A stretch of 64,000 bases of DNA from Gemmatimonadota bacterium (lineage in GTDB: Bacteria; Latescibacterota; UBA2968; GCA-2709665). The position numbers and the translations under genes are program-made. Location: the NCBI GenBank assembly GCA_002709665.1, contig PAQK01000029.1, positions 31,874 through 95,873 of the forward strand, in the 5' to 3' direction. Below the pieces are notes generated by a model. The model was not told the origin of the DNA. It saw nothing but the letters and a program-made list of their open reading frames with translations, and did no database searches. Shown here one piece after another: positions 1 to 58,645 of the stretch; position 1 is the stretch's first letter, and each line of letters opens with the position of its first letter.

Positions 1-286
1 CCATTTCGAGACCGGACATGGGTCCTCTTGCGATACCATTCTTGTCCATTATGGTGATCGCAGATTCTACATCTGCAGCGTGATGTCCTTTGAGCAGGAC
101 ATTCGGGTCGGATTCGAATGTTCCTGTTCCTTCTCCCCAGCCTACCAGACCATTTTTGGTCTCGATTTTAGTAATCAGCCCGGATGCGCCAAGGGTACCC
201 GATCCTCCTCCCCTTCCAACATAGGGGCCAACCGGAGCAGAATAGGGAATGGTAACCGATGTGGTTGTGATTTTGGAAATAATCAT
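1..286 (-). CDS. Enolase-superfamily enzyme (mandelate racemase / muconate lactonizing enzyme family). Only the first 95 codons are present; the gene continues past the left edge.
   Basis: Absent from the ORF track because no stop lies inside the window. Reverse-strand ATG at 284-286 has GGAGA about 7 nt upstream. Translation MIISKITTTSVTIPYSAPVGPYVGRGGGSGTLGASGLITKIETKNGLVGWGEGTGTFES fits the MR/MLE N-terminal capping domain (I.T..GlvGwGE). Confidence 0.6.
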   Translation of the reverse strand, partial: MIISKITTTSVTIPYSAPVGPYVGRGGGSGTLGASGLITKIETKNGLVGWGEGTGTFESDPNVLLKGHHAADVESAITIMDKNGIARGPMSGLEM

Positions 287-40686: not shown

Positions 40687-42060
40687 TTAATACATATTTT
40701 CCTTCGTGGTGATTGGGCACCACCGCGAGGTCGTGAGATGGTTCAACAGGATTTCGGTAGCTTGGGGTGTTCCGATGCATTGCAAGGCAACTGCAGAATG
40801 TCCGGACGCATATCTGTTCTCATCGTTCAGCGCTTCCGCAAGGGCGGGAACGGCTTCTTCAGCTTCAGGCCCAAATCGGGCGAGGGAGTAGGCAGCATTG
40901 TATCTGACCTGGTCGTCACCATCTTCGAGTGCCCGGCTGAGTGCAGGAACGGCGACTTCCGGATTGACGGAGATCGTTCCAAGGGCTTCGGCAACGTGGT
41001 GCCGGACCCATTCAGATTTGTCGTTTAGAGCGCCGGCAAGCGCCGACACTGATTCCCGGGCTGAGGGACCCATATCGCCAAGGGCAAATGCAGCATGACC
41101 TCGAACCGTGTCGCTGTCGTGTTTCAGCGCGGCCTGGAGATCCTCAACAGCAGCTTCCCCAACGGCGGAGAGGGCATAAGCGGCATCGAGCTGGGCCGCT
41201 TCATTGTCGCCCTTCAGGGCGTTGAGAAGATCCGGAATCGCGTCCTCGCCGAGTTTTGCTAGACCGTAAGCCGCATTCAGTCTGGTGGATTCGTCGGGTG
41301 CTTCGATGGACGTTGCCAATTCCGCATTGTCCTGGGTCTTGTCCTCGTCGGGCCTTCTGCCGGCCGCCCAATCCCACATCTGGGACCAGATGATTTCGTG
41401 TTTGTCTCCGATGCCATTTCCATGCCAGGACTCCTCCTGGTTGTTCCAGCTAGGCTGTTCCGGCTCGGACATCCGCGTGAACTGGAACTTCATCATGTAT
41501 CGGTTCTTGTCCGTATTGTTGGCTGTAGATCTGTGCCAGATATCGAAATGGACGATGGCGATCGTTCCTGCTTCTCCGCATACGGGAACACCGAGTTCAT
41601 CCAGATTGTCCAAACGGTCTGCATAATAGTGGGTGTGTGGGATGACCGCGGTAGGACCGTTCTGGATTGTCACATCCTGGGGGTAATAGAAGGCCATTGC
41701 CCATCGGTTGCGATGGTAACGAACCTTTCTGTAGCCCCAATAGCTGTCCTTGTGCCACCCTCCGTGCTTGCTATGTGGCTTGTTGATATGCGGGTGGCGA
41801 TGGATGTGCATGGTATAATCCGGTCCCAGGATGCTGGAAAATGCGCCCTGAACTTCCGGTTGGTCAAATACGGTCTGTATCTCAGGAACCCTGGGCAGAA
41901 TGTTGTTGCCAGGGTTGCCTTCGCTCTCAAAGACTTCCTCGGTCTTTCTGTATACCTCTTCGTGAAACTCCCCTGGAAGCCCAACTTTAAGCACTGTATA
42001 CCCATTGGCGATGAATTCTTTCATCTGCTCGTCGCTCAGCAAATGTTTCGGGTCAAACAT
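40687..42060 (-). CDS. Fusion protein: PhyH-family Fe(II)/2OG dioxygenase domain plus C-terminal HEAT / PBS-lyase-like repeats
   Basis: N-terminal ~240 aa are PhyH-like (GYTVLK..., GGWHKDSYW, GTIAIVHFDIWHRSTAN). C-terminal ~200 aa hold about six VR..AA.ALG-type repeats (RLNAAYGLAKLG, QLDAAYALSAVG, VRGHAAFALGDMG, VRHHVAEALGTI, VRYNAAYSLARFG, ASGHSAVALQCIG). Confidence 0.7.
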   Translation of the reverse strand: MFDPKHLLSDEQMKEFIANGYTVLKVGLPGEFHEEVYRKTEEVFESEGNPGNNILPRVPEIQTVFDQPEVQGAFSSILGPDYTMHIHRHPHINKPHSKHGGWHKDSYWGYRKVRYHRNRWAMAFYYPQDVTIQNGPTAVIPHTHYYADRLDNLDELGVPVCGEAGTIAIVHFDIWHRSTANNTDKNRYMMKFQFTRMSEPEQPSWNNQEESWHGNGIGDKHEIIWSQMWDWAAGRRPDEDKTQDNAELATSIEAPDESTRLNAAYGLAKLGEDAIPDLLNALKGDNEAAQLDAAYALSAVGEAAVEDLQAALKHDSDTVRGHAAFALGDMGPSARESVSALAGALNDKSEWVRHHVAEALGTISVNPEVAVPALSRALEDGDDQVRYNAAYSLARFGPEAEEAVPALAEALNDENRYASGHSAVALQCIGTPQATEILLNHLTTSRWCPITTKENMY

Positions 42061-42190
42061 GGGATTGTCTCCGGGTGAAATTACCTTTGTTCAGAAAGCG
42101 TATATTTGTCTGTTGGACCAAAATTAGGGATTCGACCCAGTTGGGTCAAGCCTGAATTGGCCAGGAACACAAAGTCGGTTGGAAGAATTC

Positions 42191-42219
42191 TTGAACTACA
42201 TAAAGTTGCACGGTATCAT
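42191..42219 (+). promoter_or_regulatory. Candidate sigma70-like promoter ahead of the receiver fragment and the GWxTD gene array
   Basis: TTGAAC (42191-42196), 17-nt spacer, TATCAT (42214-42219), about 60 nt upstream of ATG 42282. Confidence 0.35.
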
Positions 42220-42281
42220 GGCTTCAGACTACCTTTAACTGCCTTTTCCAAACAGGGAGCTTTGGGAAAACAGGGAGTCCA

Positions 42282-42518
42282 ATGGGGTCCTCAGGTGCCG
42301 GCGAATCCAAGGATGAGATCCTCGTGGTGGATGTACAGATCCTGTCCTTCATGTTGAGTGAGAATGGCTACAATGTGGAAATGGCGCTATCCCATAAAAA
42401 GGCACTGGAGGTGGTTCGGCGGAGGCTGCCTGACCTGATTTTCCTGGACATCAATATGCCTGGGATGAGCGGCTACGACGTTTGCGAGAAGCCGAACTCG
42501 ACGCGTTTGACGGAGTGA
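42282..42518 (+). pseudogene. Orphan N-terminal half of a CheY-like receiver domain (truncated after helix 3)
   Basis: EILVVDVQILSFML...GYNVEMALSHKKALEVVRRRLPDLIFLDINMPGMSGYDVCEK covers beta1-alpha3 with the acceptor Asp. It stops at TGA 42516-42518, one base before the next gene. Beta4-alpha5 (conserved T/S and K) are absent. Confidence 0.5.
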
Positions 42519-42528
42519 GGTGATCCGG

Positions 42529-45500
42529 ATGCAACTGCGAACAGCCATTGCAGCATTTCTCTTCTTGTCCTTCTCTCAGGGTTGTCTTCTCCAAGCTGCG
42601 GTCGACTCAAATGAGGTAGATGTGCAGGTGGATGGATGGCTGCCCGGGATCAGGGACACACTTCACCTGACCGTAGGCAGGAACAGGGCGACCAGAGTCT
42701 CAGGCGACCTGGATGGTATTCGATTTCCCTGTAGGGATGTGAGAACACGACTCAAAGATCTCCAGAGACAGAATCGCCAAGTGATCCATTCTCCGAAGCG
42801 TGATGTCGACATCATGAACAAAGGCCTCGAACTTGGGGAGTACAACCGGACAGAATTACGTCAGGGTCTCAACAACATCCGGAAGAGGCGGCTGGGCGCG
42901 AGAGTTGGGCTCAATGTAGTGGGGCTCCTGAAACAGATCGTCGAAGATCCGGATCTGACGGCGCGTTGGGCACCGCCAGTCCGCGATGTTCTTGTTGTAA
43001 ACCGAAACTGTAGAGAATTGGCAGTGGACGTCCGGGACTCCGATACCGTGCAGGTTGTGTACACACCGGCATTCTCCAGTTTCAAACAAGAAGACATCCC
43101 ATCCGAGGACCTGTTCGGTAAGATGGCCAAAGTGAAGGTGGCGGTGGCCGTGCACGATTCCACTACGGCGGCTCAGGTTTTCGAGAACCACAGTAGCATG
43201 ACTGCAGGGGGAGGATCGCTTCTGGAAGTCGGGGTTTCAGATCTAAGGGGTCGGGCCTCTGGGTTGTGGAAGGGGGATGATTCTCGAGGAGTGCTCGTTT
43301 TTCCATCTGTTTTGGTCCCGAGGCCCGGGCGACTGATTCTGGACGGCGCAGAGCCCGCATCAGAACGTGATCTCGAATCTGTACAGGTGGTGCGGATTCA
43401 GGACGGCACTGCAGTTCAGGAAGCCCTCCGAGAAGCCGAGAAGGCCACATCTTCAGGTGTCGACGGAGCGGTATCGGATGGCGAAACCGCATCAGCAGAC
43501 CTGGGACCTGCATCCTACCGGGAGGGCGTTAGAAAGCTCGACGAAGGGGATCTGGAGAGTGCACTCACTCACTTCAAGGCTACCGTAGGGGAGGACACTA
43601 GGCACGCCCACGCGTATATGGGTATGGCGGACGCGTACTTCCGGCAGATGAATTACAAGGACGCGAAGTTTTACTACAACAAGGCGCTAAAACGGGATCC
43701 TGAACTCACGATGGCGCTTTGGAAACTCGGGGATCTGGCGTTTGTCCAGGAAGACTGGGTGGCAGCCAAGAATGTGTACGGAAAGATCCTGACCAGTCAA
43801 CCCGAACATCTGTTCGCTATGTTTCGTCGTGCAATCGCTTACCGGGACAATGGGAAATCACTGGCGACGGTCTTCAGGTGGATGGAATGGCGCAGGTCTG
43901 AGCAATTCTTCCGTGTGGTGGCCACAAAAGACCCGTTGTTCGAGGACGTACACTATCAGCACGCCATACTCAAGCGATATCAGGGTCAGTACAAAAAGGC
44001 CATTCTCCTTGGCGAAAAGCAAGTTGCATTGAAGTCGGAGATTGCTTCCACCCGTCTAGGGTTGTTCCGTCTGTACTATCATTACTTGGACAACAAAGGG
44101 ACGAATGAGGTTCTGGCTTGGTTACAGAAACAGAATTCTCCCACATCCCGTTATTTCGTGGGCGAGGCTCTGCGCTACAAGGGAGAGTTTGCCCGGGCGG
44201 ATTCGGTTTTGAATACCTGGATTGGATCCAATCCGCAGGTCAGTGTTGCACCTGCCTTTCTTTCTCTTGCCAGAATCGCCTTCCAGGACTTCAAGCCTCA
44301 GATCGGCGAAGTCCAATTCTGGCGCGCTGTGGACAGTATTCAGGACTCTCTGGATGCTCAATTGGTTTACCAGGACGTTAAGTACATCGTGAACTTGGAG
44401 GAGATGTCGGCTTTCCAGGAGATCACCACGGTGGACGATTGGAAGACCTTCTTCAGAAAGATCTGGGTAAGCCGCGATCCCACGCCATCGGTTGAGTGGA
44501 ATGCGCGGCTGTCCGAGCACTATCGTCGATTGTTGTATGTGGAAAGACACTATTTGTTCGATGGGTTCAGGACGTGGTTCAACGATCCAGATAAGTTCGA
44601 TAACCTGGATTTCCTCGAAACTACCGACCTCAACGATCGGTTCAATGACAAGGGTCTTGTCTATTTGCGGCACGGGGAAGCTTCCGATATTCAGAAGCCC
44701 ATGGACCTTCGTGAGGTGTGGTGGTATTGGAAGACCAAAGAGTATCCTGAAATGGTCTTTAATTTTGCGGCCTCCCCAACCGCGGTCGGCAGCAACTGGC
44801 GGTTGGTGGAATCGGCGCTTGGGTCCGGTAATTTGAGTGCCCGCGTCCGGTGGGATGTAGAGAAGCGAATCAGAAAGGTCCGGAGATCTGTTTCCGAAGG
44901 GTTGGTTACGGACAGGCACACCTGGGATGAGAAGGTAGATGCCCTTGATTATGAATCCTATCTGGCATTTTTCAAGGGAGACGAAGGAAAGAATTCTGTT
45001 GAGCTGTATTACGGAATTGAGCTGAAAGAACTGAAGAAGGTCACAAAGGAGTTGGTGGATACCGACCCTGTTTTCGAATATGGTTTTGCGCTGCACGATC
45101 TGGATTGGAACCGTTTCGTTAATGAGAACGGTACGGTCACATTGTCAAACTGGGATGCGATTTCATATGAGGATTGGGGAATCGGTACGGTCAAGGCCCA
45201 GGGAAATGCGGATTCGTGCCAGGCGGCGTTCTTCTTACGTCCCAGTTCGAAATCGCTCCTGGGAGGTTGGAAAGGAGGCATACGCATACCCGAGATCTCA
45301 TCGACCGAACTGGATATGAGCTCGGTCGTACCTGCTTACGAAATAGATCAGGACAAGGAGACAGAGGACGTATTCTCTTCACGCGGCATTCACATGGTGC
45401 CAAACCCTTCCCGACGCTTTCCCAGGAAGGAACCCGTGTATGTCTATTTCGAATTGTACAACCTCACACCCTCCGAAAGCGGGCTGACTTCCTTCGAAGT

Positions 45501-45744
45501 CGAATACACACTGACCCAGTTGAGACACAAGGGGATCAGGAAACTTCTGTCGATATTTGGCAGCGGGAAGAAGCCGACCACCGCAGTGTCTGTGGAGCGG
45601 CTTGGAGAGACTCCGGATTCGGCGGAATACCTGTCGTTGGATCTTAGCAGGGCGGGCAGGGGCGATTTCCGATTGGATATCAAGGTGAAGGACCGCAACG
45701 CTGGAACGGAGAAAGAAACTTCGTTGGAGCTTGTTCTGCACTAG
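42529..45744 (+). CDS. Secreted/lipoprotein TPR protein with a divergent GWxTD-type domain (array member P1, 1071 aa from ATG 42529)
   Basis: ATG 42529 with AGGTGA upstream (track start GTG 42520). Signal/lipobox MQLRTAIAAFLFLSFSQGC. A unique ~330-aa N-terminal region precedes the TPR region (AYMGMADAYFRQMNYKDAKFYYNKALKRDPE...). GWxTD-region homolog: FFRKIWVSRDPTP...NARLSEHYRRLLYVERHY...NDKGLVYLRHGEAS. C-terminal VYVYFELYNLTPSESG...DFRLDIKVKD block is shared with P2-P4. Confidence 0.65.
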   Translation: MQLRTAIAAFLFLSFSQGCLLQAAVDSNEVDVQVDGWLPGIRDTLHLTVGRNRATRVSGDLDGIRFPCRDVRTRLKDLQRQNRQVIHSPKRDVDIMNKGLELGEYNRTELRQGLNNIRKRRLGARVGLNVVGLLKQIVEDPDLTARWAPPVRDVLVVNRNCRELAVDVRDSDTVQVVYTPAFSSFKQEDIPSEDLFGKMAKVKVAVAVHDSTTAAQVFENHSSMTAGGGSLLEVGVSDLRGRASGLWKGDDSRGVLVFPSVLVPRPGRLILDGAEPASERDLESVQVVRIQDGTAVQEALREAEKATSSGVDGAVSDGETASADLGPASYREGVRKLDEGDLESALTHFKATVGEDTRHAHAYMGMADAYFRQMNYKDAKFYYNKALKRDPELTMALWKLGDLAFVQEDWVAAKNVYGKILTSQPEHLFAMFRRAIAYRDNGKSLATVFRWMEWRRSEQFFRVVATKDPLFEDVHYQHAILKRYQGQYKKAILLGEKQVALKSEIASTRLGLFRLYYHYLDNKGTNEVLAWLQKQNSPTSRYFVGEALRYKGEFARADSVLNTWIGSNPQVSVAPAFLSLARIAFQDFKPQIGEVQFWRAVDSIQDSLDAQLVYQDVKYIVNLEEMSAFQEITTVDDWKTFFRKIWVSRDPTPSVEWNARLSEHYRRLLYVERHYLFDGFRTWFNDPDKFDNLDFLETTDLNDRFNDKGLVYLRHGEASDIQKPMDLREVWWYWKTKEYPEMVFNFAASPTAVGSNWRLVESALGSGNLSARVRWDVEKRIRKVRRSVSEGLVTDRHTWDEKVDALDYESYLAFFKGDEGKNSVELYYGIELKELKKVTKELVDTDPVFEYGFALHDLDWNRFVNENGTVTLSNWDAISYEDWGIGTVKAQGNADSCQAAFFLRPSSKSLLGGWKGGIRIPEISSTELDMSSVVPAYEIDQDKETEDVFSSRGIHMVPNPSRRFPRKEPVYVYFELYNLTPSESGLTSFEVEYTLTQLRHKGIRKLLSIFGSGKKPTTAVSVERLGETPDSAEYLSLDLSRAGRGDFRLDIKVKDRNAGTEKETSLELVLH

Positions 45745-46060
45745 AAGGACGACGGCACGATGTGGACGAACTGGCGGTGTGCAAGGCAGATGAGTGGGTA
45801 GGTTCCGATACGTCGTTCCTTGCGGATAGAAAGCACAGCGGTGCGATTGGCTTGAATGTATGGTTTCGATTGTGTATCTTGAATGATGTTGTGGACGCAG
45901 CGAAGATGTCCATACTTGAACGGTCCGGGAAATCGTTGATGCCGGGCCATTTTCTATTTATGACAACTCCTGGATCCAGGTGCGTTTGTCCGGCAGCCAT
46001 CAGACTATCCGGGAATCTTGTAAACCCGCACAGGACGGCGGATAGGAGCACCCGACAGAA

Positions 46061-48199
46061 ATGTATAGATTTCCCGTTTTCTTGATACTACTTGCGATGG
46101 TCGGTATCGAATCAGGAGCGGAGGCAAAGCCACGTACGTCCCTAGTGGATTCGCTAATTTCAGTTTCGGCGGATACGACCATGAGTCTTCCTGCCAGGGA
46201 GGAGATGCTGAAAGAGGCCTTGGAACATGATGCATCCGGCAAGGCGATGTTCGCACTGGCTGAGCTCCACGCGGGCAGGGCAGCGGGGTCAAACCGAAAG
46301 AAGGCCAAGAAATGGCTGAAGCGCGCTGTGGCTAGAGAGCCAGAGAATGCGAATTATCTGGGAACATATGCCGGCGCCATCTGGCAATGGGGGGGAGTGA
46401 TTCCACCCAGGAGAAACTCAGCGTACAAGATAGCCAGAAAGGCGCTGGAGCTAGACCCAAATTGTGTTGAGGCGCTTTACTGGGCGGGTCGGTATCTGGC
46501 ATGGTCCTGGGAAATGAGTTTTTTTACAGAGGCAGACGATTACGACAAACCAGACTACAGAGATGATACCGCTATTGCTGGAAAAACCTTTGTTCAGCGC
46601 GGCTATTCCAATCTGGACGTTGAGGTCGGGATCGATTTCTTCACCAGGGCAATCGAAATTGACCCCTACCACTGGCCCTCTCGGGTACAGCTCGGGCTCA
46701 TTTACCACATGGCCCAAAGACCGGCCGTACTTGCAGCGCTTTTCGAGGATTACCTAAAGATTGTTCCGGAAAGCCGCGACGGCTACTTTTTCAAGGGTCT
46801 GGGCTATCAGATGGCAGGCAACTTGCAGAAGGCTTACGATGCCTACGTCGAGGCATTGGCAATAATGGAAGGAACGGAGCGTCGATTCATGCAGAGCATC
46901 TTCATGATCAGGGACAAGAAGGCTGAGAAGAAGGGTACACCCTTGCCCGATGAATCAGACATAGCGAGGTTCTGGTTCGGCAGAGATCCGTTGTTTCTGA
47001 CTGAAATCAATGAGCGCATGCTCGAGCAGTGCAGAAGGGTCGGATACGCCAATCTCAGGTTTGGCGATCCAAGGAATGGTCTCGAGGGTTGGCAAAGCGA
47101 CAGGGGACAGGCCTACATCAGATATGGAGATCCCATCGCTAGGGGCATGGTTGCGGCAGATATCGATCTGGGCTTAGACAAGACCCTGACCGAACAGAAG
47201 GAGATGGCACGCGACGCGGGCACTTCAGGCGCTCTGTACAAGCTTACTCCCAGAATCGAGAAATGGTCCTACGACGGATTCGATGTCAGGTTCGAGAACA
47301 CGAACACGTGGAACTCGTGGCGGTTCGGGACCGCAAATCTTGGATTCCTAGAGTTGTCATTTGCGGACCTTGTCAAAGTGGTACCGGATTACTATAAATA
47401 TCTGCACCAATACGATGTTCCCTACCAATTTGCACAGTTCAGAGCCCAAAACGGGGAGACCCGCATAGAGGTGTACTATGCGCTCGAGGGTGAAAAGGTG
47501 GTCAACAAGAAGCTGACGCCAGGGGTAAGGGAAGTACATGTCACACAGGCACTTTTTCTATTTGATACAGAATGGGATACGCTCAAGCGGGTAGTGGGCA
47601 GGGTGACGACCATGCCCTGGGTGAACTACGAATCGACTAAAGCCGGGTACCTCTTTGCCGGAGAACAATTGAGCCTGGTTCCGGGATCCTACCATCTTGC
47701 CGGAGAAGCCGAGGACCAGAAAAGCAAGAAAGTCGGAACCTTCAGGGATTCTCTTCATGTTCGTAAGTTCGATATGGATTCTCTACAAATCAGTAGCTTG
47801 TTGATGGCTCGAAGAATCGTTGAGAAAGAGGAGGGTGAGTACGGCAGGGCGCGGTTCCTGATTCTCCCGAACCCTTTGAAGCAGTGCTCGCGTGACGGAC
47901 AGGCGACGTTCTATTTTGAGATCTACAACCTGAGCCAGGATACCTTCGGCGCGACTCACTACCAGGTGAGCTACCAAATGCAGATGTTGTCGGAAGAACA
48001 AACCTATTCCGCCGCTGAACCAGAGTGGACAACGGAGGTTTCCTACGATTACCGGGGCGCACGAGATTGGGAAACCTACAGGCTCACGTTGAAGATGATC
48101 GAGTCCACGCCGGGGGAAAGAGCGTTTCGGGTTAAAGTGAAGGATTTGCTGAGCGAAGAGGAAGTCGAGGGAACGACGGTGTTCCGGGTGAAGTGGTGA
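46061..48199 (+). CDS. Secreted TPR / GWxTD-domain protein (array member P2)
   Basis: Signal peptide MYRFPVFLILLAMVGIESGAEA. TPR/Sel1-like repeats. FWFGRDPLFLTEINERMLEQCRRVGYANLRFGDPRNGLEGWQSDRGQAYIRYGDP (GWxTD signature at 47087-47101). C-terminal FYFEIYNLSQDTFG...RAFRVKVKD. Confidence 0.75.
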   Translation: MYRFPVFLILLAMVGIESGAEAKPRTSLVDSLISVSADTTMSLPAREEMLKEALEHDASGKAMFALAELHAGRAAGSNRKKAKKWLKRAVAREPENANYLGTYAGAIWQWGGVIPPRRNSAYKIARKALELDPNCVEALYWAGRYLAWSWEMSFFTEADDYDKPDYRDDTAIAGKTFVQRGYSNLDVEVGIDFFTRAIEIDPYHWPSRVQLGLIYHMAQRPAVLAALFEDYLKIVPESRDGYFFKGLGYQMAGNLQKAYDAYVEALAIMEGTERRFMQSIFMIRDKKAEKKGTPLPDESDIARFWFGRDPLFLTEINERMLEQCRRVGYANLRFGDPRNGLEGWQSDRGQAYIRYGDPIARGMVAADIDLGLDKTLTEQKEMARDAGTSGALYKLTPRIEKWSYDGFDVRFENTNTWNSWRFGTANLGFLELSFADLVKVVPDYYKYLHQYDVPYQFAQFRAQNGETRIEVYYALEGEKVVNKKLTPGVREVHVTQALFLFDTEWDTLKRVVGRVTTMPWVNYESTKAGYLFAGEQLSLVPGSYHLAGEAEDQKSKKVGTFRDSLHVRKFDMDSLQISSLLMARRIVEKEEGEYGRARFLILPNPLKQCSRDGQATFYFEIYNLSQDTFGATHYQVSYQMQMLSEEQTYSAAEPEWTTEVSYDYRGARDWETYRLTLKMIESTPGERAFRVKVKDLLSEEEVEGTTVFRVKW

Positions 48200-48319
48200 G
48201 GAGGCGAAGCGCGTTTGGTGTCCGAAGTCGACGTCTGGTGAAAGAGCAAGAGAAGGCGTCGAGAGTCTAGAGTCGAGCCTAGAGGAGTCGGGTGATTAGC
48301 TATTCTCGACCAGGCTCGA

Positions 48320-50332
48320 ATGTATGGGGGCGAGTTCGAGATGGTGATTTGGTTACTAGTTGTCTTCTCCCTGACAATGGTGCGACCCGTTTGGGCAAAG
48401 GCGGACGTATCCAATGTGGATTCATTGCTCTTAAGGGCGATGGATGATAAGGTGCAGTATAAGGACAGGAAGCGTGCGGCAAAGCGAGCTACCAAGCTGG
48501 AATGGTCGCCTAGAACGATGGATGTAATGGCACGGGTCCTGATGGTTGGGGGAAAAAAGACATCGGCCCAGGAGGCGGAGCACTGGGCGCTTCGCGCGAT
48601 CAGGAGGGAGCCGGACAACCCCGATTACAGGGCGACATATGCGGAGCTCCTATGGATCTGGGACAGAAGAGAGGATTCCTACACCCAGGCCAAGCGGGCG
48701 ATTGAATTGGACTCGAATCATGCTCGCAGCTTGTATTGTGCAAGCCAGTTTCTTATGTGGCAGATCCAGTTCTTTATGGACGGAGAACGGGAACGCGGCA
48801 GAATACATCTGAATGAGTTCGCGGAGAAGGATCGAGAAGAGGCGATCGGGTATTTGGAACGCATTCTTCAGGCAACACCCGACAATCGCCAGGGCAGAGT
48901 GCTGATGGCTATGGTGTATTACGACGGTGGTTTACCGGGGCGATTAGTTGCTCTTTTCAAAGACTATCTGGAGCGACACCCGGAGGATCGTGACGGGCAT
49001 TTCTTCCTGGGTCTGGGGTATCAGGTTAAGGAGGAACTAGAGTCCGCCTATCGATCCTACTCCCGAGCCGTCAATCTGATGGATGCCGGTGAGAAGGCAT
49101 TCATGCAATCCATGTTTCTTTTGAGTGAGAAGAGGAAACTGGAGGAACGAAAAAACCTGCCGGGATATTCCGATATAAGGAAGTTTTGGACCGGAAAGGA
49201 TCCGCTTTTCCTTACACCCGTAAACGAACGGTTGATGGAACACTGTAGAAGGGTGGCCTACTCGAATCTCAGGTTCGGCGATCCCAGGACCAGGACGGAG
49301 GGTTGGCGGACGGACCGAGGCCAGGCGTATATTCGATACGGACACCCACTGTCCAGAGTGGGGCAGCTTTACAGCGGTGAGACATGGGTATACGATACAT
49401 TCCGCATTCACTTCAAGTATGGCGGAATCAGAGATCTGTGGCGATTCGGGTCGGTGTCGGTTCGCGGTCAACGGATGGGTTTCTCAGAGCTCGTCCACCG
49501 GGTTCCCGATTTCTACAGAGACCCATACAAGTGGGAGCGATACGACGCACCCAGTCAGATCGCACAGTTCCGGGAGCTCGATGGCCGCACACGAGTGGAA
49601 ATCTACTATGCGCTGCCTGGAAGCGAGGTCAATCACAAGACCAGATCACCCGGCGTACGCGACGTAAATGTGCGCCAGGGATTTTTCTTGTTCGACGCGT
49701 CTGGTGACACGGTCAGGTACGACATTGCAAAGGTCGGTCAGATGCCGTGGGTTGAATACAACAAGATGTCTCACGAAGGATATCTGTTTGCTAATGAACG
49801 ATTGAATCTGAATCCCGGAGAGTACTATCTGGCCGCAGAGGTGCAGGATCAGTCATCCAGCACGATCGGGACCTTCCGCGACTCCTTAAGGGTGCGTGAG
49901 TTCGGTCACAAGGATCTCGAGGTGAGCAGTCTTCTCGCTGCACGCCGGATTCTTGAGAAGGATAAGGGACCGTTGAACAGGGACCGTTTCATGATCCTAC
50001 CTGACCCCGTGGGGAAGTGTGAAACCAACGGGAGCATGTCCTTCTATTTCGAGGTATACAATCTGAAGCGGGATGCCTTCGGCCAGACGAACTACCGGGT
50101 TACGTATCAGACGCGAGCGCTTCGAGAAGGCTTTTTATCAGAGCAATCCCCCAGCCGATGGACCACGGCTGTTTCCCATACGTTCAAGGAATCCCGTTCC
50201 TGGGAGCCACACTATATGCGACTCGATTTGAAGCGATCGGTTCCTGGTCTGCGTGCGTTCAGGGTTGTGGTGGAGGATATCAAGAGCGGGCAGCTTGCGG
50301 TAGCCTCCTCAGTGTTTCGAATCACTCCGTGA
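48320..50332 (+). CDS. Secreted TPR / GWxTD-domain protein (array member P3)
   Basis: Signal peptide MVIWLLVVFSLTMVRPVWA (probable start 48341). FWTGKDPLFLTPVNERLMEHCRRVAYSNLRFGDPRTRTEGWRTDRGQAYIRYGHP. FYFEVYNLKRDAFG...RAFRVVVED. Confidence 0.75.
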   Translation: MYGGEFEMVIWLLVVFSLTMVRPVWAKADVSNVDSLLLRAMDDKVQYKDRKRAAKRATKLEWSPRTMDVMARVLMVGGKKTSAQEAEHWALRAIRREPDNPDYRATYAELLWIWDRREDSYTQAKRAIELDSNHARSLYCASQFLMWQIQFFMDGERERGRIHLNEFAEKDREEAIGYLERILQATPDNRQGRVLMAMVYYDGGLPGRLVALFKDYLERHPEDRDGHFFLGLGYQVKEELESAYRSYSRAVNLMDAGEKAFMQSMFLLSEKRKLEERKNLPGYSDIRKFWTGKDPLFLTPVNERLMEHCRRVAYSNLRFGDPRTRTEGWRTDRGQAYIRYGHPLSRVGQLYSGETWVYDTFRIHFKYGGIRDLWRFGSVSVRGQRMGFSELVHRVPDFYRDPYKWERYDAPSQIAQFRELDGRTRVEIYYALPGSEVNHKTRSPGVRDVNVRQGFFLFDASGDTVRYDIAKVGQMPWVEYNKMSHEGYLFANERLNLNPGEYYLAAEVQDQSSSTIGTFRDSLRVREFGHKDLEVSSLLAARRILEKDKGPLNRDRFMILPDPVGKCETNGSMSFYFEVYNLKRDAFGQTNYRVTYQTRALREGFLSEQSPSRWTTAVSHTFKESRSWEPHYMRLDLKRSVPGLRAFRVVVEDIKSGQLAVASSVFRITP

Positions 50333-50436
50333 ATTCGGACGGAACACAGTGCAAAGGGCAGGAAACAGCATATCCTTAAAGATATTCTGGAAATACCAAC
50401 CTTCGTTTTGCCGGGCGGGCAACAGGAGATAGATGA

Positions 50437-52464
50437 ATGATACGGATTTTTCTTCTGGCGGTACTTACCTTGGGGAACTGCAATTCAGCCTTTTCTGAAT
50501 CAGACTCGGAGATGGTCGATGCATTGCTTTCTTCCGCATCGGATACGTCTCTATCCCATTCCAGACGTGTGGGGATGATGGAAAAGGCGGCTCGAAAGGA
50601 TAAAACGGGCAGAGCGATGCATGCCTTCGCCAGGTACTACCTGAATCAAAATACCGTACTTTCACGCCAGTTCGCCAGGCAGTGGCTGAGGCGTGCGATC
50701 AAGCGCGAGCCGGACAATGTGGACTATCAGTTGACCAGTGCGGAGATCTACTGGCAATCCGAGAATCGCGATAAGTTCTACGAAGAAGTGCGACAGGTTA
50801 TTGCACAGAACCCGTCCAGTGTAAAGGCGCTCTACTGGGCGGGACGTCATGCCGCAAGGGAAATGGTGTACAATCTCGAACGGGAGACGCTCCACTCGGG
50901 TCCTGAAAGAAAAAAAAGATTCAATTACGGCGCATACGGGTTGGAGATGCGGAACCAGGCTATAGCGTACCTGACGGAGGCTCTGAACCAGGATCCGGAT
51001 CACAGAAGGGCACGCACACTGCTGGGTCAGGTCTACTACGAAGGTCACCAGCCAGAGGAATTAGCTGAGCTCTTCAAGGCCTACATCCTTACCCATCCAG
51101 ATGACTGGCACGCCTATTTCTTCATGGGCCTTGGTCTTCAGGCAAAGAAGGACCTAGACTCAGCCTTCAATGTCTACTCCAAAGGTCTGAGCCGGATGTC
51201 GGAAACCGAACGACACTTTATGCAGTCGATCGGGATGCTTGTCGACAGGGATGCTCTGGAGGAAAGTGACGATTTGCCGGATGACGAAGCCCTGAGACGG
51301 TTCTGGAAGGGACGTGATCCGCTCTTCCTAACGCCCAGCAACGAACGGTTGCTGGAACACTGCAGAAGGGTAGCTTACGCCAACCTGAGGTATGGAGATC
51401 CAGATCGTGGGACGGACGGTTGGGAGACCAACCGTGGGCAGGTGTACATCCGGTACGGACATCCCGGGTCCCGGAACATCTATCTTGACCGCGCGAACTA
51501 TGTGCTGCTGCGAGAGACGTGGAGTTACCCCGGGTTCAGCGTGACGTTCGAGCGTATCAACGAGAATCGCTGGAATGTTCTGGAAGTCTGGATGCAGGGG
51601 ACCGTCCGAAGCCGCTACAAGGATTTGCTGGAGCGCGTACCTGAACACTATGAAGATCCGTACTGGCTGCGGCAATATGATGCGCCGCACCAGGTTGCCC
51701 AGTTCCGAGCTGAAGACGGTAAGACCCGGTTGGAGCTCTACTATGCCCTACCGGGAGAAGAGGTAGGACACGCGGAGATCAGTTCCGGCGTACAGTCCGT
51801 GGATTTGAGACAGGGACTGTTTCTGTTCGACGCAGAGTGGAACGAGGTTAAGAATTCCGTTCAGCCGCTCAAGAAGATGCCGTGGATAGAAGGAAATATC
51901 ATCCTCGAAGGGTATCTCTTCTGGGGTGAGCGCTTGAGCCTGGACCCCGGAAGCTACCATCTGGCCGTGGAGGCGGAGGATCGTAAAGCAAAAACTCTGG
52001 GAACGTTCCGGGATTCCCTGCAGATCCGCAAGTTTGGATCCGAAAACCTCGAGCTGAGCGGATTGTTGATTGCCCAGCGGGTTGTGGAACACGAAAGTCG
52101 GCCCTTCGGGAGAGATCGTTTCATGGTTTTACCCAACCCCCTGAAGCAGTGTCAGCGGGACGGGCACATCTCGTTTTATTTCGAGATCTACAATCTTAGC
52201 AGAGACGAGTTCGGGGCCACGAACTACCAGGTGACCTACCAGACGCGCCTGCTGCCCGAATCTCACGGGGAAGGAGAGCCGGTGCCGAAGTGGACGACAG
52301 CGGTGTCCAATACCTTCCAGGAGTCGCGGTCCTGGGAGCCGAACTACCTAAAGCTGGATATGCAAGGTCTGGCACCCGGTCCGTGGGCCTTTCGTGTAGT
52401 TGCGGAGGATTTGAGAAACGGTCAACAGGCCATGAGTACGGCGGTGTTTCGGGTAATGCCTTAG
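50437..52464 (+). CDS. Secreted TPR / GWxTD-domain protein (array member P4)
   Basis: Signal peptide MIRIFLLAVLTLGNCNSAFS. FWKGRDPLFLTPSNERLLEHCRRVAYANLRYGDPDRGTDGWETNRGQVYIRYGHP. FYFEIYNLSRDEFG...WAFRVVAED. Confidence 0.75.
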   Translation: MIRIFLLAVLTLGNCNSAFSESDSEMVDALLSSASDTSLSHSRRVGMMEKAARKDKTGRAMHAFARYYLNQNTVLSRQFARQWLRRAIKREPDNVDYQLTSAEIYWQSENRDKFYEEVRQVIAQNPSSVKALYWAGRHAAREMVYNLERETLHSGPERKKRFNYGAYGLEMRNQAIAYLTEALNQDPDHRRARTLLGQVYYEGHQPEELAELFKAYILTHPDDWHAYFFMGLGLQAKKDLDSAFNVYSKGLSRMSETERHFMQSIGMLVDRDALEESDDLPDDEALRRFWKGRDPLFLTPSNERLLEHCRRVAYANLRYGDPDRGTDGWETNRGQVYIRYGHPGSRNIYLDRANYVLLRETWSYPGFSVTFERINENRWNVLEVWMQGTVRSRYKDLLERVPEHYEDPYWLRQYDAPHQVAQFRAEDGKTRLELYYALPGEEVGHAEISSGVQSVDLRQGLFLFDAEWNEVKNSVQPLKKMPWIEGNIILEGYLFWGERLSLDPGSYHLAVEAEDRKAKTLGTFRDSLQIRKFGSENLELSGLLIAQRVVEHESRPFGRDRFMVLPNPLKQCQRDGHISFYFEIYNLSRDEFGATNYQVTYQTRLLPESHGEGEPVPKWTTAVSNTFQESRSWEPNYLKLDMQGLAPGPWAFRVVAEDLRNGQQAMSTAVFRVMP

Positions 52465-52580
52465 CCTCGCGACTTCGCTAAAGCCAAGTCGGGCGGGCAC
52501 GCGTAGGTTGTACCGTAGCAGGCAGATGAGTCGCTCTGGTGAATTTGGATCACCTGGGCGATTGTTTTTGTACGTGAGAT

Positions 52581-54554
52581 TTAGTAGTTGTGGACGCCGT
52601 GGCCCTGGCCTGGGAACCAGATGGCGTCTACGATAAAGGATAGGGTTACCGCAGTGACGTAGCCTACCAGGATACCAAGGAAGGCGGGTTGCCATTTGCG
52701 GTAGAGGGTGACGCCACCAATTCGAAGAAGTGTGGCTTTGAAGGCCCAAACTACCAGAATCGAGAAGAACGTGAGCTGGGTGTTCCAGGAAAAGGCGATC
52801 GGAAAGGCAATCGGATGGAACGGCCACCATGTGAATCGGTAATGCAGGAAGGTGAGAATTGACATTGCTGCGGCACCGACACCGAATACCGCTAGCCGCT
52901 CCCAACTGGTGTCGAAGGGACTGCGCATCTGTGTGACGGTGAGGTTGTAGGCGAACCGTCCTGCCGAGGAGAACGGCCATGCATTGAAGTTGAAGGCCCC
53001 TGTTTGATACCCCAGGTGGATGGTGTGGAAAAAGTCTGCGATAAGGCCGAAGAAGATGACAGCGATGAGCGCAGGAACTAGCCGCCGACGGTGGTTCTTG
53101 ATCAGGTCCGCGAGACGGGCGACGTGCATCAGAGGAGACATAAATGTGCCTTTGCCCTGGCACACGAATCCGTAAGTCAGGCTGATGCCGGACAGGCTTG
53201 TAGGTGTAAGGTTCCGGGTCCCTATCGTGTAGAGTGCGGCGTATTGTTCTGCGAGGGTTGTTCGCATATAGGCCAGGCCGGTTTCAGCAACAATTCGGGC
53301 CATGGAGAGGTAGTTGATGATGAGGGCGGGGATGAGGAGTGCGACGAGTTTGCCCTGCATCCCCAGCTGCATGAAAAATCCGCACAGGATGGCGAGGCCG
53401 CCAAACAGGCCGAAAACGGCTGTGCGATAGGTGAGCAGCTCGTCGCTGTCGTCTGCATCCCCCGACCCAAAGGCTTTGAGGAACACGGCCTTGATATGGT
53501 CGCGGGCAGTCCAGAGATTCCAGAGGACGAGGACGGTAAGGGCGCCGAATCCCTGCCAAGCGGTGACTTCGGTTTCTGCAGAGAAGTTCGTGGGTTTGCG
53601 AGGGATGGCATACCCGACCCGGTTGATGATCCCATTTTCGAACCAGAAGAATATGATGAAGAAGATAACGATCGAGAAGAGGACATTCAGGTTGGCGAAG
53701 TAAGCAAATCCTGCGGTCAGGAAGTTGATTCGGGTGTTGATGCGCGGGAATCCTTTTGCGAAAACAACCCATTGTCCTGTGATAGGAAGTTTCGGTACAA
53801 TCGGCCAGAAGTAGTTGAGAATATTCCAGGAGATGGCGCCGAATCCCACACAAAACCCTCCCCAGAAGAGGTGCCCACGGAAGGAATCAGGCATGATCAG
53901 ACCGGGTGAAGCCTGGGTAACTGTAGCGCCTACAGAGGCCAGGGGAAAGATGAGACGTTCGTTCTGGACCCACTGCCGACGCAGGATTACGGCAATTGAA
54001 AACAGAACAGTGCAAAGTGCTAGGATGATAAGCACCCACCAGAAAATGGGGTAGAACCAGGTGGAGTACGGAGGCTGCTGACCGGCGGGCAAACCCTCGT
54101 AAAACCAGGTCATCGCATTGTGTTCGTTGGACGGAACGGCCCAGGTGGGCATGTTCGGGTGGAGATAGGTCGCCCATTGGTTTTCCGGTGTGGCGAAGTA
54201 GTAGACTCCGGAGATGATCCCCAGAAGGAAGCCGGTGATTCCAGATGTCGGGACGACCGCCCCCACGAATCCCATAGCGAGAATGGTGATGAGTTCCGAC
54301 TCTCGCAGGGCGTGGCGGGGCCAGTTGAGCCGAATAAGGCCATTTGTGATGACGATCAAAAGAAAGACCGCGAAGAGGGCGAGGGGGAAGAACGAGAGCT
54401 GCATCCGGGAGGCGTGAATTAGGTATTCGGTCGTAGAGATCCAGAAGTTGACCGCGAGGACCATGACGAGACCGATCACAACCGCCCGCAGGGTGAGGGC
54501 GTCGAATTTTGGATCAGTTACCGGGTCGAGTTTCAGGGCAGGATTTGAGGTCAT
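52581..54554 (-). CDS. Large polytopic membrane protein of unknown function (657 aa)
   Basis: Intact ORF, hydrophobic almost throughout with many predicted TM helices. No transporter signature that I can name. Confidence 0.55.
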   Translation of the reverse strand: MTSNPALKLDPVTDPKFDALTLRAVVIGLVMVLAVNFWISTTEYLIHASRMQLSFFPLALFAVFLLIVITNGLIRLNWPRHALRESELITILAMGFVGAVVPTSGITGFLLGIISGVYYFATPENQWATYLHPNMPTWAVPSNEHNAMTWFYEGLPAGQQPPYSTWFYPIFWWVLIILALCTVLFSIAVILRRQWVQNERLIFPLASVGATVTQASPGLIMPDSFRGHLFWGGFCVGFGAISWNILNYFWPIVPKLPITGQWVVFAKGFPRINTRINFLTAGFAYFANLNVLFSIVIFFIIFFWFENGIINRVGYAIPRKPTNFSAETEVTAWQGFGALTVLVLWNLWTARDHIKAVFLKAFGSGDADDSDELLTYRTAVFGLFGGLAILCGFFMQLGMQGKLVALLIPALIINYLSMARIVAETGLAYMRTTLAEQYAALYTIGTRNLTPTSLSGISLTYGFVCQGKGTFMSPLMHVARLADLIKNHRRRLVPALIAVIFFGLIADFFHTIHLGYQTGAFNFNAWPFSSAGRFAYNLTVTQMRSPFDTSWERLAVFGVGAAAMSILTFLHYRFTWWPFHPIAFPIAFSWNTQLTFFSILVVWAFKATLLRIGGVTLYRKWQPAFLGILVGYVTAVTLSFIVDAIWFPGQGHGVHNY

Positions 54555-54663
54555 CGAGATCTCTCTTTGGGTGGTCGACCAGCGAATCGATGGTCAAAAT
54601 AGGTTTTAGGGGAGGGTGGGTCAAGCGGTTTGGGGTCTTTGTCAGGGGGTAACGAGAAGGGAC

Positions 54664-55108
54664 CTACCAGGCCTGGATGCGGTGTCCCTGGCCGTTGAAC
54701 CATACGACGTCCACGAGGAAGAAGAGGGTGACCGCCAGGGCGTACCCGGCCAGGATGCCGAGGAAGAAGGGGGCTGCTGCCGACAATAGAGGATGACGCC
54801 GCCGACTCTCAGGAGGATGGCCTTGATCGCCCAGACCAGGAAGATTGAAAAGATGGCCAGTTGAGTAGACCAGGAAAAGGCGATTGGGTGGAAGGTCCAC
54901 TAGTGATGCCATTGATCAGGACGACTGAAAGGAAGCCGGCCAGAAGAGCAAGGGGGAAGTAGGAGAGCTGCATCCTGGAGGCGTTTACGATGTATTCGGA
55001 TGCAGAGACCCACACGTTGACGACAAGAACAAAGATGAGTCCGAGGACGATGGGCCGTTGCGTGACTGCGTCACGAATGCTGTCTTCAGGATGGGTTAGT
55101 GGATTCAA
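54664..55108 (-). pseudogene. Decayed tandem duplicate of the 52581-54554 membrane-protein gene (N- and C-terminal ends only, with a frameshift)
   Basis: N-end: RPIVLGLIFVLVVNVWVSASEYIVNASRMQLSYFPLALLAGFLSVVLING matches RAVVIGLVMVLAVNFWISTTEYLIHASRMQLSFFPLALFAVFLLIVITNG. C-end: WTFHPIAFSWSTQLAIFSIFLVWAIKAILLRVGGVILY, then a frameshift, then FFLGILAGYALAVTLFFLVDVVWFNGQGHRIQAW; this matches WWPFHPIAF..SWNTQLTFFSILVVWAFKATLLRIGGVTLY...AFLGILVGYVTAVTLSFIVDAIWFPGQGHGVHNY. About 500 codons are missing. Confidence 0.75.
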
Positions 55109-55135
55109 GGTGTCTGTCTTGTAAGTGTATTTTAG

Positions 55136-56104
55136 TCAGGCATCGTCAGGGTCGGTCAGTTTCCAGCCGGGGTTGGTTCCCTGGTCCATATCAGGAGGCA
55201 GTGGCTCTGAGAGTTTTTCGTAGAGATCCGGTCTTCTGGCTCTGAGGTATCGATATCCTGAAGAGACCGTAATTTTGTCTGGCTTCAACAGGGCGACCAC
55301 GACATCGTCTTCCAGTTCATTAGATTCGACGAGGATTTCGCCGAAGGGGTCGAGGATCATGGCATTGCCGTTCTTGATGGTGTCATGGTCCACACCGATC
55401 GGATTGGTGTAGACCGCGTAGATGCCGTTCTCGTAGGCCCTTGTCGGGAGCCACCGCATCAACCATCCTCGGCCCTTGGGTCCCAGAAATTCCTGACGAC
55501 AACGTGCGGGATCTTGGTGGCGGTTGTGCCATATTTCCGGGGGGATCTTTCCTCGGCCGGGCATTGCAGATTGCAGGCCGCAGGTGACGTGAGGCATGAA
55601 GATGATTTCGGCGCCGTTCATCGCGGTTATGCGGACATTTTCAGGGAGGTTGTTGTCGTAACAGATGAGGATGCCCATTTTGCAGTCGCACAGGTCAAAT
55701 GTGGTGAATGTGTCGCCTGAGGAGATGTGTTTGTTGATGAAGGCATGGAGTTTGCGGTGCTTGGCAATGTAACCGTCGGGGGAGACGGCTATATAGGTGT
55801 TGTAGAGTGTCTCGTCTTCGACTTCCAGCAGACCTGCGAGCAGTGGAACGTTGTATCTTTTTGAGAGCTCGATGAGATGTCTGGTAGAGGGGCCACTCGG
55901 GACCGGTTCAGCGAGTTCCAGGAGTTGCGGCCGTGTCAAAGTCATCAGGAAGGTGTAGCCCAGGATGCAGCATTCGTGGAAGGAGACGACTTCGGCACCT
56001 TTTTCGAAGGCGGCGTGGGTCAGGGATTCGATTCGGGATAGGTTGTAGGTTTTGTCCGCGTCTCTTGCTTCGAATTGGGCGGCAGCTATCTTGATGGGGC
56101 GCAT
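55136..56104 (-). CDS. Carbon-nitrogen hydrolase family protein (nitrilase/amidase superfamily)
   Basis: IKIAAAQFEARDADKTYNL...GAEVVSFHEC (catalytic Glu region), HRKLH (Lys), GILICYDNNLPE (catalytic Cys). 322 aa. Confidence 0.8.
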   Translation of the reverse strand: MRPIKIAAAQFEARDADKTYNLSRIESLTHAAFEKGAEVVSFHECCILGYTFLMTLTRPQLLELAEPVPSGPSTRHLIELSKRYNVPLLAGLLEVEDETLYNTYIAVSPDGYIAKHRKLHAFINKHISSGDTFTTFDLCDCKMGILICYDNNLPENVRITAMNGAEIIFMPHVTCGLQSAMPGRGKIPPEIWHNRHQDPARCRQEFLGPKGRGWLMRWLPTRAYENGIYAVYTNPIGVDHDTIKNGNAMILDPFGEILVESNELEDDVVVALLKPDKITVSSGYRYLRARRPDLYEKLSEPLPPDMDQGTNPGWKLTDPDDA

Positions 56105-57511: not shown

Positions 57512-58645
57512 TCAAGTTCCATCCATCTCGGAAGCAGTGTGAACGGCATCGCTCCAGTCATCCCATAACCCGGGACCCTCCACGCGTGGATCCGGTGGGG
57601 GGACGGCTGGCCCGAGTTCAAGTCCGAATCGCGATCTCACTGAGGGGGGAGGTGATGGTCGTACCCCCTTGACATAACGATCGTTGAATGTTCTGTCATA
57701 CACTGACTTTTTGTATGCATCGTAGATAACCATCTGGCGAATTTGCGGGGGATCGCTGTAGTTTGGGGTTGCCGAGTGGTACATTCGCCCGTGCCACAGC
57801 ACAACATCTCCCTCTTCACCAAAGAACTCAAAGGGTTCAATGTCAGCGAGCGCGTCTTTGAGACTTGGGGGAATCGGCAATACGAAAGAGGCGACACCAC
57901 TTTCGGGATGGGGAGGGTGTAGGGTCGAATAACGTGCAATATCCGCAGAGCTCGGCTCTGCCTCGTAGAGCAAGCGGTGACTGCCGGGGAAGAGAGCGAT
58001 TCCACCACCGTTTTGAGGAACCCTATCAATGTAGCCGCTCACCGCCAGATGCACCGGCTCCGGGTCAATGTGCGCACCGGCACGAGCGGCGTCCGCCATC
58101 ACAGGTGAAGCGTTGGTTCGCTCTTGCGGCAGCTTGCAGTAAAGACCGCGCAACTCCTTGCCTCCCCAGACCGGCCAGCCACGCAGCCGGCTTCCACGCG
58201 GATCCGGATCGGCTGCCGTGGAACTCACTTCTGGTGTCACCACTTGGCCTTCGCCAAGGAGTTGCTCGAACCACGGGAATGCACGACGTGGGAGCAAGTT
58301 GATCAGATCCTCGTCGCCGGAGAGTTCACGTAATCGCCACCCGTGGTCACCGGTGCGATCATTCATGCCATCTGGCGTGCTTTGACGGTCTCCCTCCGGG
58401 ACACCGTTAATCCAGGTTTCAGGGTCGTCCCGGCGCAAGTGACTTGAAGTGTTTCCCGCCCACAGCCTGTCCCTTGCTGCAGCACAAAGTTTGGGATCAA
58501 GGACATTTCGTTTAACGACAAATCCGTTCGTAACAAACTCTTGGATTTCATCGGTGCTAAGGGCTGCCAACGTTACATCCATAGAAACTGGCTTCCTTTC
58601 TTCAGTTGGTACCGGACTACAGAACTTGGCGGGCTGATACGACAA
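57512..58645 (-). CDS. Phytanoyl-CoA dioxygenase (PhyH) family protein
   Basis: EFVTNGFVVKRNVLDP, HIDPEP, GGGIALFPGSHR, GDVVLWHGRMYHSATPN. 377 aa. Confidence 0.65.
   Translation of the reverse strand: MSYQPAKFCSPVPTEERKPVSMDVTLAALSTDEIQEFVTNGFVVKRNVLDPKLCAAARDRLWAGNTSSHLRRDDPETWINGVPEGDRQSTPDGMNDRTGDHGWRLRELSGDEDLINLLPRRAFPWFEQLLGEGQVVTPEVSSTAADPDPRGSRLRGWPVWGGKELRGLYCKLPQERTNASPVMADAARAGAHIDPEPVHLAVSGYIDRVPQNGGGIALFPGSHRLLYEAEPSSADIARYSTLHPPHPESGVASFVLPIPPSLKDALADIEPFEFFGEEGDVVLWHGRMYHSATPNYSDPPQIRQMVIYDAYKKSVYDRTFNDRYVKGVRPSPPPSVRSRFGLELGPAVPPPDPRVEGPGLWDDWSDAVHTASEMDGT

Follow-up and report, generated by a model that had tools for sequence, protein, structure and literature searches.

What role do four consecutive genes for related, exported proteins of a family without an assigned function play in an uncultured marine bacterium of the Latescibacterota? 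The question is raised by a tandem array in a 64,000-nucleotide stretch of contig PAQK01000029.1 (assembly GCA_002709665.1, labelled Gemmatimonadota bacterium and placed by GTDB in the Latescibacterota, UBA2968), which at its full length is called the window below. The four genes, P1 to P4, had been predicted from the sequence to encode intact exported paralogs with TPRs and a GWxTD domain, acting as a multi-component system outside the cytoplasm. The first part of this prediction is supported: P1 to P4 are paralogs of the catalogued, uncharacterised GWxTD family (TIGR04514/PF20094), and the array is an ordinary paralog expansion in that family, such arrays being common in the phylum. As to function, we favour the reading, to which we give a probability of about 0.45, that the four are soluble periplasmic or secreted non-enzymatic adaptor or binding proteins whose specificities have diverged. 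The array and the elements at its 5' edge are as follows, in window coordinates.

42282–42518, plus strand: truncated response-regulator receiver fragment, 78 amino acids (aa), Pfam Response_reg
42529–45744, plus strand: P1, 1071 aa, a divergent GWxTD-family member with an alternative GTG start at 42520; signal peptide, orphan insert, TPRs, degenerate GWxTD domain and two beta-sandwiches
42610–43506, plus strand: orphan insert in P1, about 300 aa between the signal peptide and the first TPR
46061–48199, plus strand: P2, 712 aa; signal peptide, TPRs, GWxTD domain and two beta-sandwiches
48320–50332, plus strand: P3, 670 aa, with the architecture of P2
50437–52464, plus strand: P4, 675 aa, the member chosen for an AlphaFold2 model

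All four open reading frames (ORFs) were present on the plus strand at the predicted positions in a six-frame ORF list. TIGR04514, which had been named as the accession of the GWxTD-domain model, proved to be the right one, and P1, P2, P3 and P4 scored 30.5, 47.4, 57.5 and 60.4 bits against this NCBIfam model, all above its curated cut-off of 28 bits. Pfam PF20094 is passed by P3 alone (30.2, with a gathering score of 26.9), P1 and P4 reaching 20.6 and 19.6 and P2 giving no match. A profile of the C-terminal module built from 16 family members, which spans 405 positions and takes in the GWxTD domain and two beta-sandwiches, aligned to P2 over positions 2–405 (E 4e-179), to P3 over 2–404 (E 3e-178), to P4 over 2–404 (E 8e-187) and to P1 over 12–398 (E 4e-34). 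P1 matches this profile nearly end to end and is therefore a complete, very divergent copy. The N-terminal repeats, predicted to be Sel1/TPR-like, turned out to be TPRs in all four proteins, with matches to TPR_19, TPR_16, TPR_2, TPR_14 and TPR_17 above gathering score across the set (at aa ~333–447 in P1), and no Sel1 model matched in the Pfam scan.

P2, P3 and P4 are alike along their whole length, as had been noticed, with pairwise identities of 43% (P2–P4), 44% (P3–P4) and 40% (P2–P3). P1 shares 23–24% identity with the other three, restricted to its C-terminal ~430 aa, and it is the outlier that the prediction took it to be. The five residues that give the family its name read GWQSD in P2, GWRTD in P3 and GWETN in P4; the aligned residues of P1 are RFNDK (FL-T in the profile alignment), so that the decay of the signature is real. 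Among the consensus patterns that had been proposed for the array, the long one for the GWxTD region is exact in P2 (aa 304–358), P3 (aa 289–343) and P4 (aa 289–343) and has no match in P1, the C-terminal pattern F[YF]FE[IV]YNL... was found in P2 to P4, and the pattern AFRV.V.D fits P2 and P3 and fails in P4, which reads AFRVVAED.

The family to which these proteins belong is very large. HMMER, run exhaustively against 1.84 billion representatives, gave 10,482 clusters at 50% identity with E<=1e-3 and 1,118 with E<=1e-30, most of the proteins measuring 650–800 aa and carrying the module C-terminally. The full C-terminal module of about 400 aa is common to P1–P4 and to thousands of members, most of which also carry N-terminal TPRs. 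In contrast to the family at large, P1 lacks the GW..TD signature and several near-invariant positions and contains the orphan insert, P2 to P4 have Cys at position 309 (P4 numbering) instead of the consensus Tyr, and P2 has Gln in place of the His at position 308 that is conserved in 99% of members. The family is already catalogued, and public annotations carry the name 'GWxTD domain-containing protein'. Full-text searches for GWxTD, TIGR04514 and PF20094 yielded no paper on the domain, the matches being unrelated clinical case reports, and sequence and profile searches of the PDB yielded no solved GWxTD structure, with TPR designs and sub-threshold noise as the only results.

The history of the array was read from its relatives. 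A search through 185,579 species genomes yielded more than 558 related stretches. The 78 best loci (loci are cited by L numbers) lie nearly all in metagenome-assembled genomes (MAGs) of Latescibacterota, some labelled Gemmatimonadota or 'uncultured bacterium', with the closest in UBA2968. The order P1-P2-P3-P4 is kept in L005/L083, at amino-acid identities of 69, 72, 79 and 81%, and in the metagenome contigs L081 and L082. Nine loci of more distant genomes (L001–L004, L006, L023, L031, L042 and L058) have a P2-like and a P4-like gene only, at about 56% and 65% identity, with the P2 ortholog directly upstream of the P4 ortholog. Within 10 kb on either side, the number of GWxTD copies was one in 54 of 79 loci, two in 15 and three to seven in 10, with seven copies each in L065 and L072; several of the loci listed lie in the same chromosome, so that a genome holds multiple scattered copies.

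In a neighbour-joining tree of the paralogs, which is without support values, P2 and P4 each grouped with their respective counterparts from the pair loci, P3 and its L005 ortholog formed the sister group of the P4 clade, and P1 sat on a deep separate branch. P3 is confined to the lineage of the window and its UBA2968-like relatives. The array grew by birth-and-death duplication in an expanded family. P2 and P4 represent old paralogs that have stayed adjacent across genomes, P3 a further offshoot of the P4 lineage, and P1 a highly divergent copy that has lost the name-giving motif and has gained, in the window genome only, an orphan insert of about 300 aa. Tandem arrays thus recur in related genomes, as the prediction required, and homologs are by no means always single-copy; in Latescibacterota the GWxTD family generally tends to form arrays that vary in size. 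Six loci in Latescibacterota or 'Gemmatimonadota' MAGs (L065, L068, L072, L073, L077 and L078) contain four to seven consecutive GWxTD genes of 800–1250 aa that belong to other subfamilies, and in L072 a Kelch-repeat protein is encoded inside the array. Several related MAGs are labelled Gemmatimonadota and have GWxTD loci that group with those of Latescibacterota, so the labels look inconsistent. The C-terminal ~420 aa of P2, the stretch that was compared, are identical to those of P0064, a protein that is likewise 712 aa long and comes from a 'Gemmatimonadetes bacterium' MAG (CME25_09975).

Selection on the array, which had been argued from the intactness of the four genes, was confirmed by comparison of the window with L005. 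The proportion of nonsynonymous differences (pN) was 0.11–0.19 and that of synonymous differences (pS) 0.75–0.80, which is saturated, giving pN/pS of 0.14–0.25 with P1 the fastest at 0.25. Because pN is low while synonymous sites are saturated, all four genes are under purifying selection.

The 5' end of the array has a history of its own. The N-terminal region unique to P1, predicted at about 330 aa, is an insert of about 300 aa, which had no Pfam match and whose sole match among 5.8 billion proteins was a 100%-identical Tara fragment. In L082, the nearest P1 ortholog with upstream sequence available, the protein is 782 aa long and aligns to residues 327–1071 of P1 at 69% identity; its signal peptide runs straight into PASYREG, and the insert is absent. 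The insert looks coding-like, with no stops in the frame of P1 and 5–14 in the other frames and with a codon-usage score of +0.15 (+0.21–0.23 in neighbouring genes), and it could have arisen de novo or be a domain that evolves very fast. A shared 'long member' across arrays was considered as well and rejected: the N-terminal extension of a 1101-aa protein of L072, like those of the long members of the other arrays of this kind, is not homologous to the extension of P1.

The truncated response-regulator fragment that had been reported in front of P1 is also real (Response_reg positions 12–63 of 111, E 1.5e-11). Between its stop and P1 lie one base if the GTG at 42520 is counted as the start and 10 bases if the ATG at 42529 is; a GAGG Shine-Dalgarno-like motif precedes this ATG by 7–10 nucleotides. 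The corresponding place in L082 is taken by a PhyH dioxygenase gene, with no response regulator. Because the insert and the receiver fragment are found here and PhyH in L082, the 5' end of the array has been rearranged in the lineage of the window, and the fragment is probably a relic of rearrangement at this edge and not a working regulator. The promoter-like element proposed at 42191–42219 did not survive scrutiny; it is a 9/12 match, of which six were found and 6.0 expected by chance, and scans for sigma-70 promoters and for terminators gave uninformative results at chance level.

Would the neighbouring genes tell what the array does? Upstream and on the opposite strand lie topoisomerase IV/gyrase A- and B-like genes, a gene for a beta-helix protein and one for a PhyH protein with HEAT repeats, and downstream, convergent with the array, lie genes for a DUF6785/DUF6784 protein, a CN-hydrolase, a PhyH protein (57512–58645) and UxuA. 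The DUF6785, CN-hydrolase and UxuA genes are syntenic with the loci that hold the P2 and P4 pair, and the PhyH gene is not. As partners of the array, the DUF6785/DUF6784, CN-hydrolase and UxuA genes were set aside as plain synteny: they are convergent, and DUF6785 was not found downstream in L005, where the ~1.3 kb left beyond P4 held no DUF6785 homolog and had a plus-strand ORF instead. The DUF6785 and DUF6784 protein (52581–54554, minus strand, 657 aa, E 2e-100 and 1e-21), convergent to P4, has syntenic counterparts of 77–80% identity in nine to ten relatives, and L062 encodes a homolog of 40% identity 2 kb away from an unrelated GWxTD paralog.

For a wider survey, all ORFs within 10 kb on either side of the GWxTD genes were clustered for about 85 loci. 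The neighbours that recurred across clades came from generic multi-copy families only (GFO/IDH/MocA, ABC ATPase, PhyH, SDR and sulfatase, with a few amino-acid enzymes common to sister clades), and the contexts of distant GWxTD members, in KSB1 and in another Latescibacterota, had no gene in common. Other GWxTD genes are the one kind of gene that is consistently found beside a GWxTD gene. The suggestion that the array captures substrate for the polysaccharide-degrading genes around it is therefore not borne out, since the survey (79 loci) shows generic families only and the conserved downstream genes are convergent. Latescibacterota have been described as diderm and polysaccharide-degrading (PMC4454575). 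With this lifestyle and the content of the window, substrate capture is plausible in a general sense, and the gene context gives it no support.

These data bear directly on the possibility that P1–P4, or at least P2 and P4, form one hetero-oligomeric scaffold, an obligate multi-subunit complex outside the cytoplasm. Such a complex would agree with the P2 and P4 lineages lying side by side in one orientation in more than 12 genomes (55–65% identity), with the full four-gene order in L005, L081 and L082, with purifying selection on every gene of the array and with the recurrence of GWxTD genes as each other's only constant neighbours. We nevertheless consider it unlikely. The orthologous locus holds four copies here and in the UBA2968-like relatives and two in about ten genomes, numbers elsewhere run from one to seven with a single copy the commonest state, and P1 is a degenerate copy with an insert confined to one genome. 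The gaps between the genes are 104–316 bp, and translational coupling is not indicated. Across genomes we found neither the fixed gene content and order of an operon nor a conserved partner gene, and a dedicated four-component system is not supported by this evidence.

Where the proteins reside is of importance for any other reading. In 146 family members the N-terminus reads as an ordinary type-I signal peptide with an A-x-A-like site at its end, and a lipobox-like Cys is present in 10 of these members and missing from the remaining ~136. The lipobox that had been proposed as one of the export signals of the array does not hold up: P4 reads LGNC and P1 SQGC, neither of which is the canonical L-[AS]-[GA]-C, and the Cys is not kept in orthologs, being missing, for example, in P0002, an 81% ortholog of P4. 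NCBIfam and Pfam scans of P1–P4 gave no match to the C-terminal sorting-domain models of type IX secretion (T9SS) or to those of PEP-CTERM. Because the proteins are taken to be exported by Sec and no anchoring or sorting signal was seen among those looked for, they are probably soluble and periplasmic, possibly secreted. Directly after the predicted cleavage site most family members have the motif VDSLL..A.DT.L (aa ~29–41 in P2, ~32–44 in P3 and ~27–39 in P4), which corresponds to the first helix of the P4 model.

This model, built by AlphaFold2 from an alignment of 44 sequences, has a mean predicted local distance difference test score (pLDDT) of 87.0 and a predicted template-modelling score (pTM) of 0.79. 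The predicted parts of P4 are as follows (all plus strand).

aa ~1–20, plus strand: signal peptide
aa 19–263 (50491–51225), plus strand: helical TPR solenoid
aa 283–400 (51283–51636), plus strand: alpha/beta GWxTD domain of three helices and a 4–5-stranded sheet
aa 412–530 (51670–52026), plus strand: beta-sandwich 1
aa 544–675 (52066–52461), plus strand: beta-sandwich 2

A short linker of low confidence separates the TPR solenoid from the GWxTD domain. When the C-terminal 400 aa of P4 were modelled alone, pLDDT was 78 and the first 54 residues, which make up the GWxTD helices, lost confidence. Because this loss occurs in the model without the TPRs, the models suggest that the GWxTD helices pack against the TPR solenoid.

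Foldseek searches of the PDB with the full P4 model were dominated by TPR proteins (consensus TPR designs, OGT and MamA), and those with the C-terminal 400 aa returned generic tandem beta-sandwich proteins only, with TM-scores of 0.2–0.37 and root-mean-square deviations (rmsd) of 11–21 Å. The best of the latter was RbmA of Vibrio cholerae (PDB 4be6 and 4kkp; E 1.8e-7), a scaffold of the biofilm matrix with two tandem FnIII domains. Both proteins are exported and have two consecutive beta-sandwiches; however, with a TM-score of 0.23/0.37, an rmsd of ~11 Å and ~10% identity, and with neither TPRs nor a GWxTD domain in RbmA, the likeness is not homology. The C-terminal beta-barrels 1 and 2 of animal transglutaminases (factor XIII, TG2 and protein 4.2) matched at E ~3e-7 over 270–380 columns, a tandem pair of Ig-like barrels being present at the C-terminus in both cases, but the TM-score is ~0.2 and the rmsd 15–21 Å, and the array proteins have neither a match to the transglutaminase core nor its Cys-His-Asp triad.

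A dead transglutaminase or papain-like core was tried as an identity for the GWxTD domain and rejected: the aligned lengths fit the two barrels, Transglut_core gave no match even at E<=10 in 16 family members, and no Cys/His/Asp triad is conserved. C309, the sole Cys of the GWxTD domain, is Tyr in 84% of the family. The periplasmic TPR scaffolds and adaptors (PrsT, PorW/SprE, YbgF/CpoB, MamA and NlpI-like proteins) are likewise exported with a TPR solenoid of 5–6 repeats, and the TPRs of MamA superpose on those of P4 with a target-normalised TM-score of 0.77. This likeness is confined to the TPRs, with scores far under family cut-offs; these proteins have no GWxTD/beta-sandwich module, and several of them are lipoproteins.

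Conservation was scored in 141 diverse family representatives and is given in P4 numbering. Near-invariant in the GWxTD region are W290, D294, P295, T299, N302, E303, R304, E307, H308 (99%) and R311 (100%), followed by G328, W329, T331, G334, G341, W362, Y364, F371, F423 and G460, and in the C-terminal part E512 (99%), S541 (99%), Y581, E583 (99%), Y585, N586, L587 and D658 (100%). The conserved positions are mostly aromatic residues, Gly or Pro, many of a type found in protein cores, and to these is added one set of polar residues, which is spread over a single GWxTD helix and the two sandwiches. These polar residues could form a shared site or inter-domain contacts. Of the near-invariant residues, P1 lacks E303, G328, W329, W362 and E512.

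The conserved polar residues raise the possibility that the GWxTD module has an enzymatic activity that has gone unrecognised and is directed at a polymer of the envelope or of the extracellular space, with the TPRs recruiting a substrate or partner and the beta-sandwiches resembling carbohydrate-binding modules. Near-invariant polar residues (D294, N302, E303, R304, H308, R311, E512, S541, E583 and D658) and a genome with an abundance of genes for glycan processing (TonB-dependent receptor, cohesin, lyase-like, BNR and sulfatase genes) would be expected of such an enzyme. However, no catalytic fold or family was matched in Pfam, NCBIfam or PDB, no Cys/Ser/His triad is conserved among the 141 representatives, and the neighbour survey revealed no co-location with genes for carbohydrate-active enzymes or transporters. 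In addition, P1 lacks E303 and E512, and P2 has Gln at position 308, yet both genes are conserved. An enzymatic function thus seems improbable to us.

We therefore return to the reading of P1–P4 as soluble, non-enzymatic adaptor or binding proteins with diverged specificities. Under this proposal Sec would export each protein by means of its type-I signal peptide, and the TPR solenoid would serve to bind a partner, either a protein or a peptide. A candidate ligand site would be made up of N302-E303-R304, E307-H308, R311 and T331 on the GWxTD helix and of E512, E583/N586 and D658 on the sandwiches. The paralogs would differ in specificity and would have no need of an obligate four-subunit complex.

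Four points weigh against this proposal or limit it. The paralog tree on which the history of the copies was read has no support values; the long-lasting adjacency of P2 and P4 means that the two could act together as a heteromer; the ten polar residues listed above for an enzyme could equally be a catalytic site; and the Foldseek matches of the model to RbmA and to the transglutaminase barrels amount to a resemblance in fold class, to generic tandem beta-sandwiches only. Finally, a TPR scaffold for envelope biogenesis or secretion, of the kind of AlgK, PelB, BcsC, PrsT, PorW and BamD or the adaptor NlpI, would suit exported TPR proteins whose best NCBIfam matches outside GWxTD are TPR lipoproteins (PrsT, YbgF, LapB, GltE and PorW), but is very unlikely, as these matches cover the TPR stretch only and fall far under the cut-offs (53.4 bits for PrsT, TIGR02917, with a cut-off of 312.2; 22.2 for PorW/SprE, NF052312, with one of 250), no exopolysaccharide, T9SS or Bam genes are among the annotated neighbour gene families, and a housekeeping machine would hardly be expected to have many scattered paralogs in each genome.

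The adaptor reading can be carried further, into territory that we regard as speculative and doubtful. GWxTD might be an unrecognised class of extracytoplasmic recognition modules, with the polar residues as the ligand site if they are clustered in three dimensions, and the arrays of Latescibacterota might be a repertoire of receptors or adaptors directed at different polymers or partners in the envelope; in this picture P2 and P4 would form a heterodimer and the motif-less P1, as a 'pseudo-member', would serve as regulator or scaffold. For an exported family of this size (~10,500 clusters at 50% identity), a functional handle would fill a gap in bacterial envelope biology. What the present locus adds is a domain map (TPR, then alpha/beta GWxTD, then two beta-sandwiches), a list of near-invariant residues and the observation of tandem expansion in Latescibacterota. 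The map, the list and the survey of arrays are useful but incremental, and the function is not revealed by them.

Elsewhere in the window are genes for a TonB-dependent receptor, a cohesin protein, lyase-like proteins and BNR proteins. The receptor, with a CarboxypepD_reg N-terminus, is encoded at 8055–10904 and is followed at 11055–13781 by the 908-aa cohesin-domain protein, which has a C-terminal FlgD_ig-like domain; the two fit the cellulosome-like or surface glycan machinery proposed for Latescibacteria. Genes of the PhyH (phytanoyl-CoA dioxygenase-like) type are unusually many. They lie in the window at 5132–6139, 40687–42060 and 57512–58645, one of them fused to HEAT repeats, are found also in L082 (8925–9671) and L046 (21035–21820), and recur near GWxTD genes in several clades; this abundance probably marks a second expanded family in these genomes. 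Four minus-strand ORFs, at 969–3404, 21844–23019, 23087–24322 and 25546–29235 (811, 391, 411 and 1229 aa), had no Pfam match at E<=1e-5. GC skew is 0.09–0.22 over 42001–56000, being positive also over the minus-strand genes downstream of the array, and 0.02–0.12 in the rest of the window.

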